Virus record (IMG/VR): IMGVR_UViG_3300044711_000058
Span: 1-46,813 of that record
Strand: one strand, 5' to 3'
Length of the DNA: 46,813 bases
DNA from: a virus
Taxonomy: Duplodnaviria > Caudoviricetes
Positions 4,346 to 46,148 of the stretch are shown here, one piece after another (within the stretch, counting starts at the first letter, position 1; the number at the start of each line of letters is the position of its first letter). The notes below the pieces were generated by a model, which saw nothing but the letters and a program-made list of their open reading frames with translations, had not been told where the DNA came from and did no database searches. The position numbers were made by a program, and so were the translations under genes.

Positions 4346-4675
4346 TTAAGCGCCCTTGTTCGTCAGCACGCCGGTCCCGGCGCATTTCTTACAGGACGTT
4401 TTCAGGGCCGCGCCGCCTTCGTACCATCCGACACCGTCGCAATCATCGCAGTAGCGCCACTTCGCTTTCGGCGGCGGTGATGTCGGGCGCTCACGACTCC
4501 CGCATGTCGGGCAGCAATAGGTGCGCTGGAAGGCGTGATGAACCTTCTTGCACGCGTCCTTGTTGCTGTCGCTGCACATCCTAAACGTGAATTCGCAATG
4601 CTCCGATGGGGGCCGCGAACAGATGCCGCCCTTCTTGCCGCCAGCGCGGCCCGTGTGCATAAATTGGCACTCCAT
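4346..4675 (-). CDS. Cys-rich protein with DnaJ-type zinc-finger repeats
   Basis: CDDCDGVG and CKKCAGTG (CxxCxGxG) motifs. Confidence 0.65.
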   Translation of the reverse strand: MECQFMHTGRAGGKKGGICSRPPSEHCEFTFRMCSDSNKDACKKVHHAFQRTYCCPTCGSRERPTSPPPKAKWRYCDDCDGVGWYEGGAALKTSCKKCAGTGVLTNKGA

Positions 4676-4860
4676 CACGCCACCTTCTTTTCGGGCGTCA
4701 TGAGCCACACGAACACGCGCGCCATGGCGTCGGGATCACAGACCAACCCGCGCTCGATGCGGCTCAACGTCGCCGCGCTCGTACCGACGATCCGCGCGAG
4801 ATCGCGGAGCGAGAGGCCATTCGACTCTCGCACACCCTTCAAAAACTTGCCGAATTTCAT
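4675..4860 (-). CDS. XRE-family HTH regulator (Cro-like)
   Basis: FGKFLKGVRESNGLSLRDLARIVGTSAATLSRIERG. Confidence 0.9.
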   Translation of the reverse strand: MKFGKFLKGVRESNGLSLRDLARIVGTSAATLSRIERGLVCDPDAMARVFVWLMTPEKKVA

Positions 4861-4862
4861 GC

Positions 4863-4916
4863 TTGCCTCGCTTCGTCGTTTTATGTATAGTACGAGCCCG
4901 AAGCGATGGAGGTCAA
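4863..4916. promoter_or_regulatory. Overlapping opposed sigma70-like promoters
   Basis: + strand TTGCCT-17-TATAGT (4863-4891); - strand TTGACC-18-TACTAT (4916-4887). Confidence 0.6.
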
Positions 4917-4939
4917 CTAATCTTTGATATCTCATCAGG

Positions 4940-5352
4940 GCTCTGAGCGAGGGACAAATCGCCGGAGTGCCTGCTGAGGAGTGCCGCAATCTTGAAGGGG
5001 CTCGACCCCGTAGGGAAACGGCGGCACGACAGCGACAGGGCGGACCTACACGCTCCTTTCCACCTCGGTCCCGTAGGTGGTCGCGAAACGGGGTGACGAG
5101 CGTTGCGGCTCCGGCGCTCGGTGCAGCGAACCCGAAAGCGGGCGAGTCGGTTAATCGGTCTACTGACTGCTTCGCTACCGGAGCCGACTCGGTTCCATGA
5201 ATTCTCCTGACAACGGCAGCATTGATGAAAATGCGGCATCCAAGAACGCTGACGGAATCGCCTGATCAGCGGGACGGCAACTGCGAGACGATGCGCCCTA
5301 GGCCAAGGTACCGGCCGATCCGGTCCGTGGTCAGGAGAGTTGAGGGAATCGA
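4940..5352 (+). ncRNA. Putative large structured non-coding RNA / leader
   Basis: At least ten complementary stems found by eye, loop-loop complementarity, no credible ORF, downstream of a promoter. Confidence 0.6.
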
Positions 5353-5356
5353 AGAA

Positions 5357-5713
5357 ATGGGCGACAAGCCGAACGATGAAGCGAAAGAGGCGCCGCGCAC
5401 ATGTCCAGCATGTGGCGAGGTGTCGCCTAATTTCATGACCACGACCCGGCTGCACCGGGGCGATTGTGCGCTCGTGTCAGATGCCGAGGCATGCGACAAA
5501 CCCGAATGGATCGACGTGGAGCAGCGCGGTCTGCCTCGGCGCGGGCCTCGCTATCTCGACGTGAGGTGCCAAGCGGGCCATGTTCACCGCGTCGAGTGGG
5601 GGCCTGTCGGCTACTTCGCAATCAACCCTGATCGCCGCCTGCATGCGCCAGACGAGATAATCGAAGTGAAGGCGTGGCGCCGCGTGAAGGTGACGACGAA
5701 CAACCGGAGCTAG
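5357..5713 (+). CDS. Hypothetical zinc-finger protein
   Basis: GAGGGA RBS before ATG 5357; CPACG motif. Confidence 0.6.
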   Translation: MGDKPNDEAKEAPRTCPACGEVSPNFMTTTRLHRGDCALVSDAEACDKPEWIDVEQRGLPRRGPRYLDVRCQAGHVHRVEWGPVGYFAINPDRRLHAPDEIIEVKAWRRVKVTTNNRS

Positions 5714-6019
5714 CATGACCTACTTCATCCCTGATTCGATCCTGGAAGAGTTGCGAAGCGGAGTCGTCGATCACCTCGAATACGACGGCCCAGAAGTCAC
5801 GGCGTTCTTCGCCGATGGCTACGTGACGCACTTCAACGCGACCGCAACGCCGGAAATGATCACGGCTGATCGGCAGCAGATCCGGGAGAGCGCACGGGCA
5901 CATGGCGCATTGATCTGGAGCGGCACCATGCGCGTTACCGTGGATGATGAACGTCACGGCATGGTATTCAACCACGGAGTTTAGGATTGGACAACATGTT
6001 GACCGGAGCTAGCATGACC
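5703..6019 (+). repeat. 18-bp direct repeat ACCGGAGCTAGCATGACC (5703-5720, 6002-6019)
   Basis: Exact copies each spanning RBS and start codon of consecutive genes. Confidence 0.85.
5715..5984 (+). CDS. Hypothetical protein
   Basis: GGAG RBS, 89-aa ORF. Confidence 0.7.
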   Translation: MTYFIPDSILEELRSGVVDHLEYDGPEVTAFFADGYVTHFNATATPEMITADRQQIRESARAHGALIWSGTMRVTVDDERHGMVFNHGV

Positions 6020-6367
6020 CATCTGACGCAGCAGCAGCTTTACGATGCGATGGTGGCGCTCGACGGCATCCCTGACGACTCCGGTGATGTTCGTGCAGCT
6101 CGCGGGTCCGGCAAGACGACTACGGTGACAGACCTCATGACGCTGGAGGCGTATGACGATATTCCGCCGTCAACCAACCGTCGCGGCCGACGCACTGCGC
6201 GCCGATCGAAACACCGCCGCCGCTGGCTGCGCGAGCGAAAAGAGTTCCTGAGCCTGAAGCCCGCCGAGCCGGGAGAATGGGCCTGTCACGATCAAGTGAT
6301 GCTCGTCGTTTCGCAGCATTGGGTACGGATGACGAAGAACTACTACAATATCGAGCGGGAGTTATAG
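6014..6367 (+). CDS. Hypothetical protein with basic patch
   Basis: GGAG RBS; isolated RGSGKTT string. Confidence 0.6.
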   Translation: MTHLTQQQLYDAMVALDGIPDDSGDVRAARGSGKTTTVTDLMTLEAYDDIPPSTNRRGRRTARRSKHRRRWLRERKEFLSLKPAEPGEWACHDQVMLVVSQHWVRMTKNYYNIEREL

Positions 6368-6372
6368 TCAAC

Positions 6373-6639
6373 ATGTTGACAGATGAAGAGCTGAAGGCAA
6401 TCGAGGACAAACTCGACCGGGCGCACCCGACAACCTGCGGATGTGGAGAGTGCGTCGGCTTCGACATTTGCTACGAAGGATGCGTTGATCCGTTGCTCTC
6501 CGAGGTGAAGAGACTCCGCGCCGAGCCGCGCAACGTGGTGGTGATGATGCCGCCGATCGAAGAGAGCGCGTTCACCGAAGTCATTAAGATGCAGGCAGCG
6601 GAGATCGCCCGACTGCGGGCGCCGAAGGGTGAGCGGTGA
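6373..6639 (+). CDS. Hypothetical protein (ead/Ea22-like pattern)
   Basis: MLTDEELKAIE...LLSEVKRLRAE pattern common in phage early proteins. Confidence 0.6.
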   Translation: MLTDEELKAIEDKLDRAHPTTCGCGECVGFDICYEGCVDPLLSEVKRLRAEPRNVVVMMPPIEESAFTEVIKMQAAEIARLRAPKGER

Positions 6640-6989
6640 CTGACGAAGAGATCCAGAAGTGGCACGATTCAATGCCGGCGAACATCTGCGCGTGGGGGTC
6701 GTTCGCCCTGCGTCTCATGGATGAAGTTGCAACGCTGCGCACGGAAAACAAATCCTACCAGCGAACCATCGTCGCTCTCACGTCTGGGTGGCAGAGCGTA
6801 GCCGATGGAGCGAAGCCGGACGTCGCGTGCTGGTACGTCGCAAAGATTCAGACGCAACCGGCATCGCTTTCGAGTGGAATGACAGCATCGGTCACGTACT
6901 ACACCGTTCACGCTAGCGGATCAGAGCAACCGAGCGCCGTAAACTGCTTCCTCGTGATCCCTCCTCCTCCGATCAAGCGGGAGTCCTGA
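6636..6989 (+). CDS. Hypothetical protein
   Basis: GTGA coupling; MTDEEIQ...LMDEVATLRTE similar to previous gene. Confidence 0.6.
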   Translation: MTDEEIQKWHDSMPANICAWGSFALRLMDEVATLRTENKSYQRTIVALTSGWQSVADGAKPDVACWYVAKIQTQPASLSSGMTASVTYYTVHASGSEQPSAVNCFLVIPPPPIKRES

Positions 6990-6992
6990 CCG

Positions 6993-7340
6993 ATGCTGTC
7001 ACCCGAGCTGCGAGCGACCATCGATCGAATCAACGCATGGCAGCGCTGGCACCTTCGCGACATGATCGCTCCGTGGCGGCGCCCGCTCCGCTACTACTTC
7101 GGTTTCACCTGCGAATTCCCGACCATCGGCCCGTTCCGCAGTGTCTACGTGCGCTTCGTGTTGCCAGGCCTGCTCATCGACTACCGGGAGAACGCCGAGG
7201 ACTTCATGACGCTCCGAATCATGACAGGCTGCGGAATCTTCCTCTTCAATCCGCGCCAACTTCGCGGGGAGAACGCCATCATGCGTGGCCGATGGATCGT
7301 TGACGCCTTTCGAGAAACCGAGGAGCCGGTCCGGTGGTAA
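6993..7340 (+). CDS. Hypothetical protein
   Basis: GGGAG RBS, 115 aa. Confidence 0.6.
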   Translation: MLSPELRATIDRINAWQRWHLRDMIAPWRRPLRYYFGFTCEFPTIGPFRSVYVRFVLPGLLIDYRENAEDFMTLRIMTGCGIFLFNPRQLRGENAIMRGRWIVDAFRETEEPVRW

Positions 7341-7555
7341 ATCAACGTCTCCTCCCTCTCCATCCCGAGAGAAAGCTCCTCACCGGATGCCGACACCGGG
7401 AGCTCGTGCCGGTCTATCTCGCCTCGGCGCCACCCCTCGTCCCGCTCTACATCATGGGCTACCCCGGCGTTACTGAAACCGTGCGGAGTTGCCCGCTGGT
7501 GGGGTTCATGTGCCTCACCTGCGAGGCACAGATTCCATGGGCGTTCGCCTCATGA
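7334..7555 (+). CDS. Hypothetical small zinc-binding protein
   Basis: GAGGAG RBS; CRH...CLTC. Confidence 0.55.
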   Translation: MVNQRLLPLHPERKLLTGCRHRELVPVYLASAPPLVPLYIMGYPGVTETVRSCPLVGFMCLTCEAQIPWAFAS

Positions 7556-7749
7556 CCGACCGCCGCAAGTTCCTCCAGCTCCTCGCCTCAGCCTGCGCAG
7601 CGGTGATGTGCCGACGCCAAGCGCCAGAACAGGCCCACGCTGCCGCGGCGGGGCGAATCGGCACCATCCGGACCGCCTCCTACGTGTTCCTCAGCCCGGA
7701 AGGCATCTGGGAGCTCTACGACGACGGGACGATGGTCCGCGTCGGGTGA
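7552..7749 (+). CDS. Small protein with twin-arginine signal-like N-terminus
   Basis: MTDRRKFLQLLASACAAV; ATGA coupling. Confidence 0.55.
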   Translation: MTDRRKFLQLLASACAAVMCRRQAPEQAHAAAAGRIGTIRTASYVFLSPEGIWELYDDGTMVRVG

Positions 7750-7886
7750 CGCCTCGCGAACTCGGCGTACCTCCGCTGTAGAGGCTCTACCGGCTTCGCC
7801 ATCTCTTCCTCAACCTCCCGAGCCAGCCTGTCGCGTATCCAACCCACCGCCTCACTCAGCGCCTCTCGATCGTCGGAATCGCTCAT
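7716..7886 (-). CDS. Hypothetical 56-aa protein (not in ORF track)
   Basis: MSDSDDREALSEAVGWIRDRLAREVEEE...; weak RBS. Confidence 0.4.
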   Translation of the reverse strand: MSDSDDREALSEAVGWIRDRLAREVEEEMAKPVEPLQRRYAEFARRHPTRTIVPSS

Positions 7887-8242
7887 AAGGTACTCATCCT
7901 ACAGGATTTTTCGTCGCGTAGTCCGAGAGGGTTCCGCGAAACCGGTGCCAAGTTCTCGGGTGGGGTCTGGGGTAGGGGTCTAAATGCGGAGTGACGTCCT
8001 TAAATCCATCGCGAATAAACGCTTTACTCTTCTTACGTTTAGTGGGTGGAAACGTGTCGGCGAGGTGTGAATACGCGGGGGTTCTCAGCCCTGAAATGTG
8101 ATGCCAAGAGCTGATCAGTGCCAAGTCTTTGAAGCGTTGGCTCCATCGACACTTGTCGAAGGTGGGTGGGGGATCGGTAGGTTTGTCAAGTGTTTCCCCG
8201 AGCGGAAGTGTTGAGGATCAACGGTAATTCTCGGGGTTAGTG

Positions 8243-8271
8243 TTGACAAGCGGGCGCGGCGAACCTATCTT
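8243..8271 (+). promoter_or_regulatory. Strong sigma70-like promoter, probably leaderless transcript
   Basis: TTGACA-17-TATCTT, 6 nt before ATG 8278, no RBS. Confidence 0.75.
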
Positions 8272-8277
8272 GTGGGT

Positions 8278-8541
8278 ATGAAGAACGCAAACGCGCTCCG
8301 CTCTCTCACCTACGGCATGGACGACGTCCAGCTCTGCAACGTGAAGGCGAACATCCAGTACCGGGCCGAGAATGGTCAGGCGCGGGCGATCGGGCGCCGC
8401 TCGGCCGTGCGTGTCGTGGTCGTGGATGCCTTGCAGCAGGAGCGCAGCTACGACTCGACCATGCCGCTCCCGAGTCCGGCGCAGATGGTAGAGCTGGCCG
8501 CGTTTGCTGCCGGTGTTGGGGTAGAGGAGGTGGGATCGTGA
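8278..8541 (+). CDS. Hypothetical early protein (cassette A gene 1)
   Basis: Follows promoter; last 82 bp duplicated in inverted form at window end. Confidence 0.7.
   Translation: MKNANALRSLTYGMDDVQLCNVKANIQYRAENGQARAIGRRSAVRVVVVDALQQERSYDSTMPLPSPAQMVELAAFAAGVGVEEVGS
8460..8541 (+). repeat. Inverted repeat copy 1 (82 bp)
   Basis: Exact reverse complement of 46732-46813. Confidence 0.97.
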
Positions 8542-8733
8542 GGCAATTCGCGGAAAGAGTGGCGCACCGCCGTAGAGTACCGCCTCAGCGAGCTTTACGA
8601 CCATCTGGCGCACTGCCCGCTCTGCTCCTCTGTCGTGGAAGGCGACTTCTGCACGGAGCGGCAAGCGAGGCGGGCCAAGCTGGAGGACGCCCTCGACAAG
8701 ATGGAGATCGCGCCGGCCGAGGAGAACACCTGA
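8538..8733 (+). pseudogene. Frameshifted or recoded CxxC protein (cassette A gene 2)
   Basis: Protein-like frame NSRKEWRTAVEYRLSELYDHLAHCPLC...CTERQARR is one base out of register with GTG 8538. Confidence 0.5.
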
Positions 8734-8734
8734 C

Positions 8735-9025
8735 ATGGCTTATCAGCACCACATTTGCCCCTTCTGCGAAACCTCATTCCCCGTCGCTGCTTCGGGGCGC
8801 TGGACGCACGAATGCAACCCGGGTGATGGTCTGCACGTGGTCGTGACGTGTGATGCGCCATGGACTGCCCCTTGGGGCCCAGAGCACCCCTACGCCAAGG
8901 ACATCTGCGACGAGTGTGGCGACTACAAGATCGACCATGCCGACAAGGGCGAGGGCCCATGCACGCTCGGGGCGAACTGCAACAAGCCTACCTGCATGCG
9001 CTTCAGAGAGGAGATGCCCTTCTGA
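8735..9025 (+). CDS. Zinc-finger protein (cassette A gene 3)
   Basis: GAGGAG RBS; CPFC, CDECG...H...C...C...CMRF. Confidence 0.7.
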   Translation: MAYQHHICPFCETSFPVAASGRWTHECNPGDGLHVVVTCDAPWTAPWGPEHPYAKDICDECGDYKIDHADKGEGPCTLGANCNKPTCMRFREEMPF

Positions 9026-9207
9026 TGGATCTGATGCTAAAGATCAAACGGGCGGCCGGGAAGCAGAAGGGCTTACTCCTCTCCCCTCAGGATGTGTCGG
9101 AGTTAGCGGAGGTGACTAGAGAACTCGCTCTGTTGGCGGAACAGGCTAGGGTGGAGAGACGGAGGAAGCAGTGGAGGGACTCTTCCTCTAAGGCGCGGAT
9201 AGGCTAA
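9025..9207 (+). CDS. Hypothetical protein (cassette A gene 4), paralog of 45951-46148
   Basis: IKRAAGKQKGLLLSPQDV...RELA...ARVERRRKQWR. Confidence 0.7.
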   Translation: MDLMLKIKRAAGKQKGLLLSPQDVSELAEVTRELALLAEQARVERRRKQWRDSSSKARIG

Positions 9208-9501
9208 TTAACGGGTTTCCATCAGGCTTTCCGGCATGTTCTCCACGAGCCACTTCGCCAAGAACTCCTCCCGCCGACTCTTGAACGTGTTGCACGCCTT
9301 CGGATGGACCAAGCCGCGCAGCAACTCGGCCAGTCCGACGCCCCACGACTCCGGTACCTTGACGATCGACGCTTCGTACAGCTCGCGGCACCGTTCGCAT
9401 CGCCCGTTGCCGAGGATGTCATAGCATGTGTGGCCGTCCTCTCGTGCTGCACGGACGCGCTGCATGAACGCCTCCAACTCAGCGTCGTCAACGAAACTCA
9501 T
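9208..9501 (-). CDS. Hypothetical protein
   Basis: GAGGAG RBS; HTC...CERC. Confidence 0.65.
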   Translation of the reverse strand: MSFVDDAELEAFMQRVRAAREDGHTCYDILGNGRCERCRELYEASIVKVPESWGVGLAELLRGLVHPKACNTFKSRREEFLAKWLVENMPESLMETR

Positions 9502-9527
9502 TCGGTACTCCTCAAAGGTGGGTTCTC

Positions 9528-9625
9528 AGCTACGGCAATGGTGCGCTACGGCATCGTCGCCACTTGCGTGACCGCCAGTTCCCGCCCGACACGAACGTGT
9601 CGGCCGATCGTCCATTACCGTAGCT
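9528..9625 (-). ncRNA. Putative ~100-nt multibranch structured RNA element
   Basis: 14-bp closing stem, internal GCAA-capped and GTTC-capped hairpins. Confidence 0.5.
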
Positions 9626-10215
9626 CAGACCTCCACTACGTCTATGCCTAACACTGCCTTCATCAACCGTTTCTTGGCGGTGAACAGCCGGTAAGCGACA
9701 TCCTTCGATGACTTCCGCCCCTTCACGTCCTCAACGATCATCGTTGCCGCACCCGGCAGGTCCAATCCGCGGATTGCCGCGTTGACCGAGCCATCGTTCT
9801 TAAAGTAAGCGAAGTCGGCGATGTATGCACAGATATCAACCCCGTTGACCTCTAAGTTGAACCGCTCGTGCGTCCGTAGATCACGGATCATCCCGCCGCG
9901 CTCCATCAGCTTCAACTCGGCGTACCTGTCCGCCTCTTTCTTCGATGCGAACTTGATTCCGTCTACTACAGTGGGCTCGTTGCGGTACTTCGGGGGCTTC
10001 GCGGTGGTGAACGCCATCTCGTCAGCCGCTGCCGGACTCGTTGCTCGATATTGATCGGTGATCCGGGCATACGCTGCCACCTTCGCGCAGTCGTCCTTCC
10101 CGCATGTCCAGTTCAGGCCGATCGGAGTAAACGGGTCTTTCGACTTCGACACGTCAACTTCCGACACACGTTTGCATCGGGAGCAGCGGACCTCCTGGAT
10201 TAGCTTTCGTGTCAC
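9625..10215 (-). CDS. DUF1064-family endonuclease with N-terminal zinc finger
   Basis: KYRNEPTVVDGIKFASKKEA...YIADFAY...VEDVKG. Confidence 0.85.
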   Translation of the reverse strand: MTRKLIQEVRCSRCKRVSEVDVSKSKDPFTPIGLNWTCGKDDCAKVAAYARITDQYRATSPAAADEMAFTTAKPPKYRNEPTVVDGIKFASKKEADRYAELKLMERGGMIRDLRTHERFNLEVNGVDICAYIADFAYFKNDGSVNAAIRGLDLPGAATMIVEDVKGRKSSKDVAYRLFTAKKRLMKAVLGIDVVEV

Positions 10216-20106: not shown

Positions 20107-20709
20107 ATGACTCACCTCCTGCTGAAACGCGCCTCGGAACCTGAACTCTACGACGCTAGAGCCCAGCGCTACCGTATCCTCAAAACGGGGCGCGGTAAGC
20201 GTTGTGGTACATGCACGTTTGAGGTGCCGGAAGAGGACATCGTTATCGAGGACGGACAAGAACGCTGCCCGATGTGCAGGGACACGCTGACGGCAGCATG
20301 GAAGGCCGCAGAAGAGCAGAGCGTTGCCGCCGTCAAGGCCGCCGCCTATCGTGCGCTCTTCCAGCCGCCCAAGTTCTCTGTTCGGCCGTTACAGGAAACG
20401 ATCCCCGCTGCCGTGACAGCGATCCGCGATGTAAACGGGCGAGACGTCCATAGTAGCGCGCCACTCTCGTTACGTATCAATGACTTCACGCCGACCGTTC
20501 CACAGCCGCCGACGCTTACATTGGTCGGTCAGCGGTTCACGGCCGCCGACACCGTCACCTTACCGGCTGGCTTCGTGAACGTGGATGTGGACATAGTGAG
20601 CACCAGAATCAATTTAGTGTTTTACCCTGGCGCGTTCGTCGCTTCTGGCCGTTACGCGATCCTATTCAACGGCCATTCATTTGGCAATATCATCATCGCC
20701 GTGCCGTGA
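20107..20709 (+). CDS. Zinc-finger plus Ig-like domain protein
   Basis: CGTC...CPMC then beta-rich TLTLVGQRFT segment. Confidence 0.6.
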   Translation: MTHLLLKRASEPELYDARAQRYRILKTGRGKRCGTCTFEVPEEDIVIEDGQERCPMCRDTLTAAWKAAEEQSVAAVKAAAYRALFQPPKFSVRPLQETIPAAVTAIRDVNGRDVHSSAPLSLRINDFTPTVPQPPTLTLVGQRFTAADTVTLPAGFVNVDVDIVSTRINLVFYPGAFVASGRYAILFNGHSFGNIIIAVP

Positions 20710-45732: not shown

Positions 45733-45954
45733 ATGTCCAACCCCAACTGCATGCGAATCAGACGAAAGGACGATGACGCGATCTCGGTGGAGATATCGAT
45801 CGATCCGAACGATGGCCTGGTGTGCGTCGTACCTCACGAAGCAGTGTCGTTCTTTCGGACTCCTGAGGAGAAGCTGCAGCTGGCAGAAGAGCTGGAGCGG
45901 ATGGCCGGGATGATCCGTCAAGGCGTGCCGCAACATGCGTTTAAGATCGGTTAG
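45733..45954 (+). CDS. Hypothetical protein
   Basis: GAGGAG upstream; last rightward gene. Confidence 0.55.
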   Translation: MSNPNCMRIRRKDDDAISVEISIDPNDGLVCVVPHEAVSFFRTPEEKLQLAEELERMAGMIRQGVPQHAFKIG

Positions 45955-46148
45955 CCCCTCCTCCTCCCCCCGCCCCTCCTCCTCCCCTCCCTCCACTGGG
46001 TACGACGCCGTTGAACCCGAGCCTCCCTATCCAACTCCGCCAACTCTCTGACATACTCGTGCATCCAGAGGAACTCGACATCCTCATGGGAGAGCTCCAG
46101 ACCCTTCCCTTTGCCGGCCGCACGTTCGATCCTTCCCCAGACGTTCAT
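45951..46148 (-). CDS. Hypothetical protein (cassette B gene 4), paralog of 9025-9207
   Basis: IERAAGKGKGLELSHEDV...RELA...ARVQRRRTQWR; GGAGG RBS. Confidence 0.7.
   Translation of the reverse strand: MNVWGRIERAAGKGKGLELSHEDVEFLWMHEYVRELAELDREARVQRRRTQWREGRRRGGGRRRG

Follow-up and report, generated by a model that had tools for sequence, protein, structure and literature searches.

What is encoded in the roughly 460 nt that separate two divergent sets of genes in this phage? The window, by which we mean the whole stretch of DNA analyzed (46,813 nt), is a 46.8-kb virus record with a completeness of 97%, and its terminase and virion genes begin about 11.9 kb in. Identical sequence was present in soil and rhizosphere runs from three studies, one of which is possibly the source of the record itself. 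The locus is the divergence point. An HTH gene and further genes run leftward, and rightward there are about 460 gene-free nt followed by small ORFs from 5357. The features that frame it are as follows.

4675-4860, minus strand: 61-aa XRE/Cro-like HTH gene (Pfam HTH_31, E 1.4e-9; PHROG regulators), head of the leftward, replication-side genes
4863-4891, plus strand: sigma70-type promoter-like site TTGCCT-17-TATAGT, matching 9/12 consensus positions
4887-4916, minus strand: second promoter-like site, divergent and overlapping, serving the HTH gene
4868-4906, no strand: inverted repeat around the shared -10 region, with its center where the -10 boxes of the two divergent promoters overlap
5357-5713, plus strand: opening gene of the predicted operon, encoding 118 aa with a DUF551-like lead only (SD at 5342-5347; atlas score 0.86)

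We infer that the rightward transcript starts near 4898, and the inverted repeat is a candidate operator for the HTH protein. No terminator-like or intrinsic terminator site was found between the promoter and the genes or anywhere in 4850-9700. In the closest relative, G001, two short HTH-like genes diverge at C1 2160-2680 (layout by eye), whereas this phage has a single HTH gene opposite the RNA. Searches for tyrosine and serine integrases (PF00589 and PF00239) were negative in all four records, this one and three relatives. Therefore, there is no sign of lysogeny, although the phage may be temperate in the plasmid manner.

Coding potential was scored with a Markov model of codon positions, for which 13 large genes served as the training set. 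All six frames of 4898-5356 were negative, at -0.36 to -0.56 bits per codon, which rules out a coding reading and bears out an earlier reading made from the sequence alone (the sequence-only reading), in which no credible ORF had been seen. As a control, the model returned positive scores for 9/12 other called genes, with gene 5357 among the three exceptions (-0.07). The upstream extension of gene 5357 from 5222, which had been weighed earlier as a frame that might be translated, scored -0.34, and public gene calls place the start at 5357, never at 5222 or 5225. The 4967 ORF was also negative. A tRNA or tmRNA was rejected, as none was found in the window. We also rejected a 34-codon uORF from 4992 behind GAGGAG: its frame was negative, it was absent from the protein collection, and the loose end of a contig from run X4 (see below) has no start codon there. 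A CsrA sponge was considered on account of five ANGGA sites, a number in about the top 1% of windows, but most of these sites are paired in the predicted fold.

Folded as a whole, the region (GC 61%) had an MFE of -183.7 kcal/mol and a z of -2.85. Only 2/100 shuffles were equally good, and so the fold survived the shuffle comparison that the sequence-only reading had proposed for it. The plus strand folded better in 9/9 segments, and the helices contain G-U pairs on that strand. The parts of the fold are listed here.

4931-4978, plus strand: H1, a long hairpin with the 8-nt loop GGGACAAA, which includes GACAA (z -3.3 and -3.6, plus strand favored)
4981-5027, plus strand: H2, a hairpin whose stem is interrupted by two internal loops (pair probabilities 0.89-1.0; z -3.5)
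5050-5103, plus strand: D2, a hairpin at 5060-5080 with GUCCC (5068-5072) in its loop, and a weak closing helix
5106-5186, plus strand: D3, with a 9-bp closing helix (probability 0.47) and rival pairings
5189-5352, plus strand: D4, an interrupted closing stem of ~25 bp with a multibranch interior and a 3' arm overlapping the SD (z -4.1; stem pair probabilities 0.84-0.99)

H1 and H2 are adjacent, 2 nt apart, and together (4931-5027) they had a z of -4.4; D2 and D3 had values of -1.45 and -2.1. When 200-nt windows of the genome were corrected for composition, both ends of the region ranked 7 to 9 of 1554 and the middle ranked 497 and 831. Therefore, there are two firm end modules and a soft middle. 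The region is not one uniformly folded RNA; its folding is bimodal. All of the helices that had been named earlier were located where they had been placed. Of the single four-domain fold drawn from them, both ends are stable, but D2 and D3 are weak and have rival pairings, and a fold of all four domains closed by a kissing loop is at most a possibility. Its first domain has both hairpins, but H1 reaches 4931/4978 and absorbs part of what had been described as a tandem-GA region. The 5' boundary had been set too late, since 4931 is the first base of H1 and transcription is predicted from about 4898.

Covariance models of Rfam 15, those for GOLLD, ROOL, and OLE included, gave nothing at gathering level and nothing at an E of 10, in agreement with the claim that this is not a known family. 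The hammerhead consensus runs CUGANGA, stem II, GAAA, stem III, NUH, stem I. Here CUGAGGA precedes H2, but GACA follows it, stems I and III could not both be drawn (by eye), and there was no Rfam match, so a hammerhead was rejected. Ribozyme cores were rejected by descriptor. A literature search matched four motifs of the element in no paper. The PMC10690425 supplements, as far as they were covered, held no entry for it, although it may be among the 10,000 candidates listed there. The leader is a real, uncatalogued structured element. It had been described as an uncharacterized structured noncoding element, either an ncRNA or a leader, and it is indeed noncoding, folded, and outside Rfam.

The search for homologues by BLASTN or nhmmer that had been suggested yielded no alignable homologue in the collections or in three related phages. 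Pattern scans of IMG/VR returned loci among which nhmmer or CM checks found no homologue (0/11, 0/4, 0/9, 0/39, 0/82, and 0/39). A metagenome scan found one locus, which was an identical copy, and a genome scan found one match with unrelated flanks, a chance match. BLAST against phages and plasmids gave no more than short matches, and L036-L038 and L204 had unrelated flanks on inspection. L180 was rejected as a D4 homologue because it lies within a long ORF of the opposite strand. The three related phages, G001, G002, and G003, had been found via terminase. The leader was unmatched in them by BLAST and by the single-sequence CMs R1 and R2, although such CMs are weak and G001, which is 83% complete, may lack the locus.

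Partial matches came from two contigs of other genomes, one in run X4 and one in run X1. The X4 contig (1260 nt) was identical to 4932-4981 at 48/50 positions and the X1 contig (177 nt) to 5326-5362 at 35/37, with flanks unlike the window on both sides of the X4 match and around the X1 match; each is a single contig at a depth of 3-5, and recent module exchange predicts an equal picture. The two X4 differences were absent from a second read comparison. By our own arithmetic, a few gigabases could not yield matches this good by chance. The limits of the two matches agree with those of H1 and of the 3' arm of D4 together with the SD and start codon. The X4 contig retains H1 and neither H2 nor D2. 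The HTH protein has a homologue, P0003, that is 61% identical and is encoded on a 7.8-kb contig, where a full leader homologue is most to be expected. In G002 (L032), an early-operon spacer at 8131-8357 (minus strand) has three long hairpins and a z of -5.7, and it is the top window of that genome. No Rfam family scored above threshold in this spacer, which ends in a boxA-like match, one of three such matches in 20 kb.

The relatives had other features of their own. In G002 (L032), a further ~500 nt (~8714-9223, minus strand), in which no gene is convincing, lie upstream of an early promoter-like site. An element of 64 to 70 nt stands at gene starts twice in G002 (6742-6805 and 9994-10063) and also in G003 (L078 4325-4388), and it is probably an extended promoter. 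In G003, an ORF at C1 19118-20500 (minus strand) had a weak Ro60/Rsr match (E 3.6e-7 on a part, below the cutoff). A tRNA-like T-arm sequence at ~20640-20700 (minus strand), uncalled by ARAGORN, precedes this ORF. The pair is possibly a phage Ro60 and a Y-RNA-like partner.

What might the element do? The answer that we prefer, tentatively and as one somewhat more likely to be wrong than right, is that the ~460-nt region is a lambda PL-N-like regulatory leader RNA that extends from an early promoter to the first gene. Two further features enter this proposal.

4917-4929, plus strand: boxA-like motif, ~20 nt after the predicted start and just before H1
6014-6367, plus strand: 117-aa gene, third of the predicted operon, whose product has an arginine-rich motif in its central part (residues ~55-76) and is a candidate RNA-binding (N-like) factor

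The boxA-like motif scored 10/13 against the B. subtilis boxA consensus (PMC13753749). Against the E. coli consensus, 4917-4929 gave no match at up to three mismatches. At up to three mismatches, both strands of the window together held 10 matches to the B. subtilis consensus where 6.0 would be expected, which is no enrichment, and 4917-4929 is the only one of the 10 that lies directly behind a listed promoter-like site. By our own arithmetic, the chance of a match within the first 40 nt is about 0.4%; the counts cover the window and G002 (L032), and the motif was selected after the X4 flank had been seen. It is partly paired within a weak nascent hairpin, and its 7-nt core is also present at the loose end of the contig from X4. 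The GACAA within the 8-nt loop of H1 is the sequence of the P22 boxB pentaloop as PMC12550061 gives it. The 117-aa protein matched no family in Pfam, PHROGs, or NCBIfam and no N family. Its arginine-rich segment is the best-kept part in two clear homologues among four hits (of the other hits, one was unaligned and one poorly aligned).

In the leader that we propose, host RNA polymerase would start near 4898, and NusB-S10 would bind the boxA-like motif. The operon's own arginine-rich protein would bind H1. Polymerase loaded in this way would then cross the untranslated leader and the small genes, escaping Rho termination. We favor such a cis-acting leader over a stand-alone RNA because the run from promoter to RBS has no terminator, because of the boxA-like motif, and because an arginine-rich protein is encoded downstream.

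At the other end of the proposed leader, D4 would gate the translation of gene 5357, with the spacer and the 3' portion of the SD base-paired in its outer helix. One more element bears on this gate.

5180-5196, plus strand: alternative 7-bp hairpin that can form only when neither the D3 closing helix nor the outer D4 helix does

The gate might open when this hairpin forms first or when an RNase III-type cut occurs. Opening the stretch from SD to AUG was computed to cost 10.5 kcal/mol when D3 is closed and 3.0 when the hairpin is formed. This state is less stable than the ensemble by 5.2 kcal/mol, yet the hairpin is the first to appear in prefix folding. The interrupted D4 stem consists of 8 + 12 + 4 bp, to be read beside an RNase III criterion of about two helical turns. 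In lambda cIII and adhE, an occluded RBS is described as freed by RNase III (PMC5371410). Burial of the gene 5357 RBS by domain 4 had been claimed earlier, and the site is partly paired. However, its overall opening cost of 10.0 kcal/mol ranks 11 of 34 starts, so that the burial is ordinary.

It is unlikely, but worth serious weight, that the region (~4898/4931-5352) is instead a stand-alone large structured ncRNA of a new class, processed from the early transcript, acting in trans, and held together by a kissing loop between H1 and D2. Its length and helix density fit such an RNA, as do the very high sequence conservation of H1 and a location that in a lambdoid switch belongs to the repressor gene (compare the HTH-like pair of G001, by eye). 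The 5-bp loop-loop match fits it too. This pairing, between GGGAC (4951-4955) and GUCCC (5068-5072), was part of the sequence-only reading, and the complementarity is there. GGGAC is unpaired in the ensemble, as are four of the five GUCCC bases. However, the MFE exposes only 4/5 of the latter, opening all five costs 3.0 kcal/mol, and the chance level is 1-10%: a 5-bp match arose in 4/300 shuffles and 6/292 genome windows, and a 4-bp match arose in 9.7% of shuffles. From this modeling, a real kissing loop is plausible. In the leader that we prefer, the pairing may help to set the state of the gate, and the model can dispense with it.

The surroundings of the D2 loop are soft. Its closing helix is not among the full-length ensemble helices at a probability of at least 0.15. 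D2 and H2 have 8-nt and 7-nt repeats in common, and so the D2 loop could be a remnant of a duplication. The D2 pyrimidine runs (5051-5065) resemble an anti-Shine-Dalgarno sequence. A similar pyrimidine run is present in the loose end of X4 and in a loop of the G002 spacer. What tells against a stand-alone RNA is that the middle domains fold like ordinary genome windows, that X4 keeps H1 without H2 or D2, that a terminator is absent, and that D4 extends into the SD of the gene.

We find it rather unlikely that the region is a mosaic spacer, made of exchanged modules and decayed sequence, with hairpins that shield the leader from Rho or nucleases or act as DNA. There are cassette junctions downstream, in the form of identical 18-mers (5703-5720 and 6002-6019) and 12-mers (5992-6003 and 6369-6380) at gene starts. 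A contig in run X4 holds a near-identical gene 5357 and then unlike sequence from the repeated 18-mer onward. The operon is therefore an array of cassettes. These junctions agree with a mosaic origin, and so do the internal 8-nt and 7-nt repeats, which suggest duplication, and a whole-region z of only -2.85 at 61% GC. Against it are homology edges that equal helix edges in two separate contigs and plus-strand folding that is favored in all nine segments tested.

Farther along, the stretch at ~7890-8271 is noncoding and AT-richer, and no promoter-like site of the region is stronger than the one at its end (10/12). The stretch is possibly an origin or a second early promoter. The last 82 bases of the contig (46732-46813, minus strand) are an exact inverted copy of 8460-8541 (plus strand), the 3' end of gene 8272-8541. 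Both copies lead into parallel small-gene cassettes, in which ORFs at ~9025-9207 and 45951-46148 look paralogous (by eye). The copies would stem from an inversion switch or else from a branch in the assembly.

A fuller form of the proposal would make this a new large phage regulatory RNA class. Here, in a phage distant from the lambdoids, a 460-nt machine in the place of a repressor gene would combine an N/nut-type site with a new arginine-rich family and would act on translation of the first early gene through the kissing loop and a cascade of helices. We regard this as improbable.

A put-like, protein-independent antiterminator is quite improbable. H1 and H2 would bind host RNA polymerase directly, and the remainder would be spacer and translation stem. 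Two stems 2 nt apart right after an early promoter are what such an element would present, and strict sequence conservation suits a polymerase-binding surface. However, the two stems take up 97 nt rather than ~70, they have no Rfam match, and the X4 contig has a different second stem. This reading would also leave both the boxA-like motif and the arginine-rich gene unexplained. The last reading involves a second possible partner of the D2 loop.

5269-5275, plus strand: 7-bp complement of the D2 loop, whose nested formation costs 16.8 kcal/mol

Very unlikely, finally, is a same-strand antisense switch of the P4 CI or P1 c4 type, in which the D2 loop would silence the operon by pairing either upstream with the H1 loop or downstream with 5269-5275; it has 5-bp upstream and 7-bp downstream partners (compare seqA/CI/seqC), but these pairings are short, the downstream one carries the cost just given, and there is neither a c4 or CI match in Rfam nor a sign of lysogeny.

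How does the preferred leader compare with known systems? It resembles the lambda and P22 PL leaders in having an early promoter, a boxA-like motif and then a hairpin whose loop contains GACAA, a small arginine-rich protein encoded in the operon, and a long stem beside the first RBS. The lambda and P22 leaders comprise a nut site (boxA and boxB), the N protein, and a leader stem that RNase III processes. It differs from them in its length of ~460 nt and in an H1 of 48 nt with an 8-nt loop, and an integrase was not found here. The boxB of nut is a short hairpin with a GNRA-like penta- or hexaloop, whereas H1 is far longer and has a loop of 8 nt, not 5. The boxA-like motif, unlike that of nut, is of the B. 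subtilis type. N carries its arginine-rich motif at the N terminus; the 117-aa protein has it in the middle and is encoded by the third gene of the operon, and the lambdoid N family is unmatched. Two of the features that define nut/N are thus lacking, and therefore we do not file the leader under nut/N. For reference, PMC8632103 describes N proteins as ~110 aa long, with an arginine-rich motif that acts on boxB, and boxA as 5' of boxB in lambda nut.

The HK022 putL site is described as two stem-loops of ~70 nt (PMC9378689). The leader likewise has a pair of neighboring stem-loops close behind an early promoter, but they span 97 nt and have no Rfam match at an E of 10 or less, and the second stem is missing from the sole partial homologue. 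In P4, CI is complementary to sites upstream and downstream (seqA and seqC), according to PMC4825925. With the P4 CI, P1 c4, and Gifsy-1 IsrK leaders, the region shares a long structured leader, an internal loop complementary to upstream and downstream sequence, and alternative folds of the RBS. However, its complementarity is 5-7 bp only, and it has no Rfam match and no sign of lysogeny. Its likeness to GOLLD, ROOL, and OLE lies in a structure some hundreds of nucleotides long that is carried by a phage and may include a kissing loop. Unlike them, the region has no Rfam match, no tRNA genes in its window, and a weak middle, and it continues into an RBS.

To our knowledge, N/nut and put antitermination have been described almost solely from enterobacterial lambdoid phages. 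If the region is a stand-alone RNA instead, it would represent a new large phage ncRNA class. If the leader reading is correct, a leader of boxA plus hairpin with a new arginine-rich partner would extend the antitermination strategy to an unrelated soil phage. It would also provide a new RNA-peptide pair and suggest a role for some of the long structured leaders of uncultured phages.
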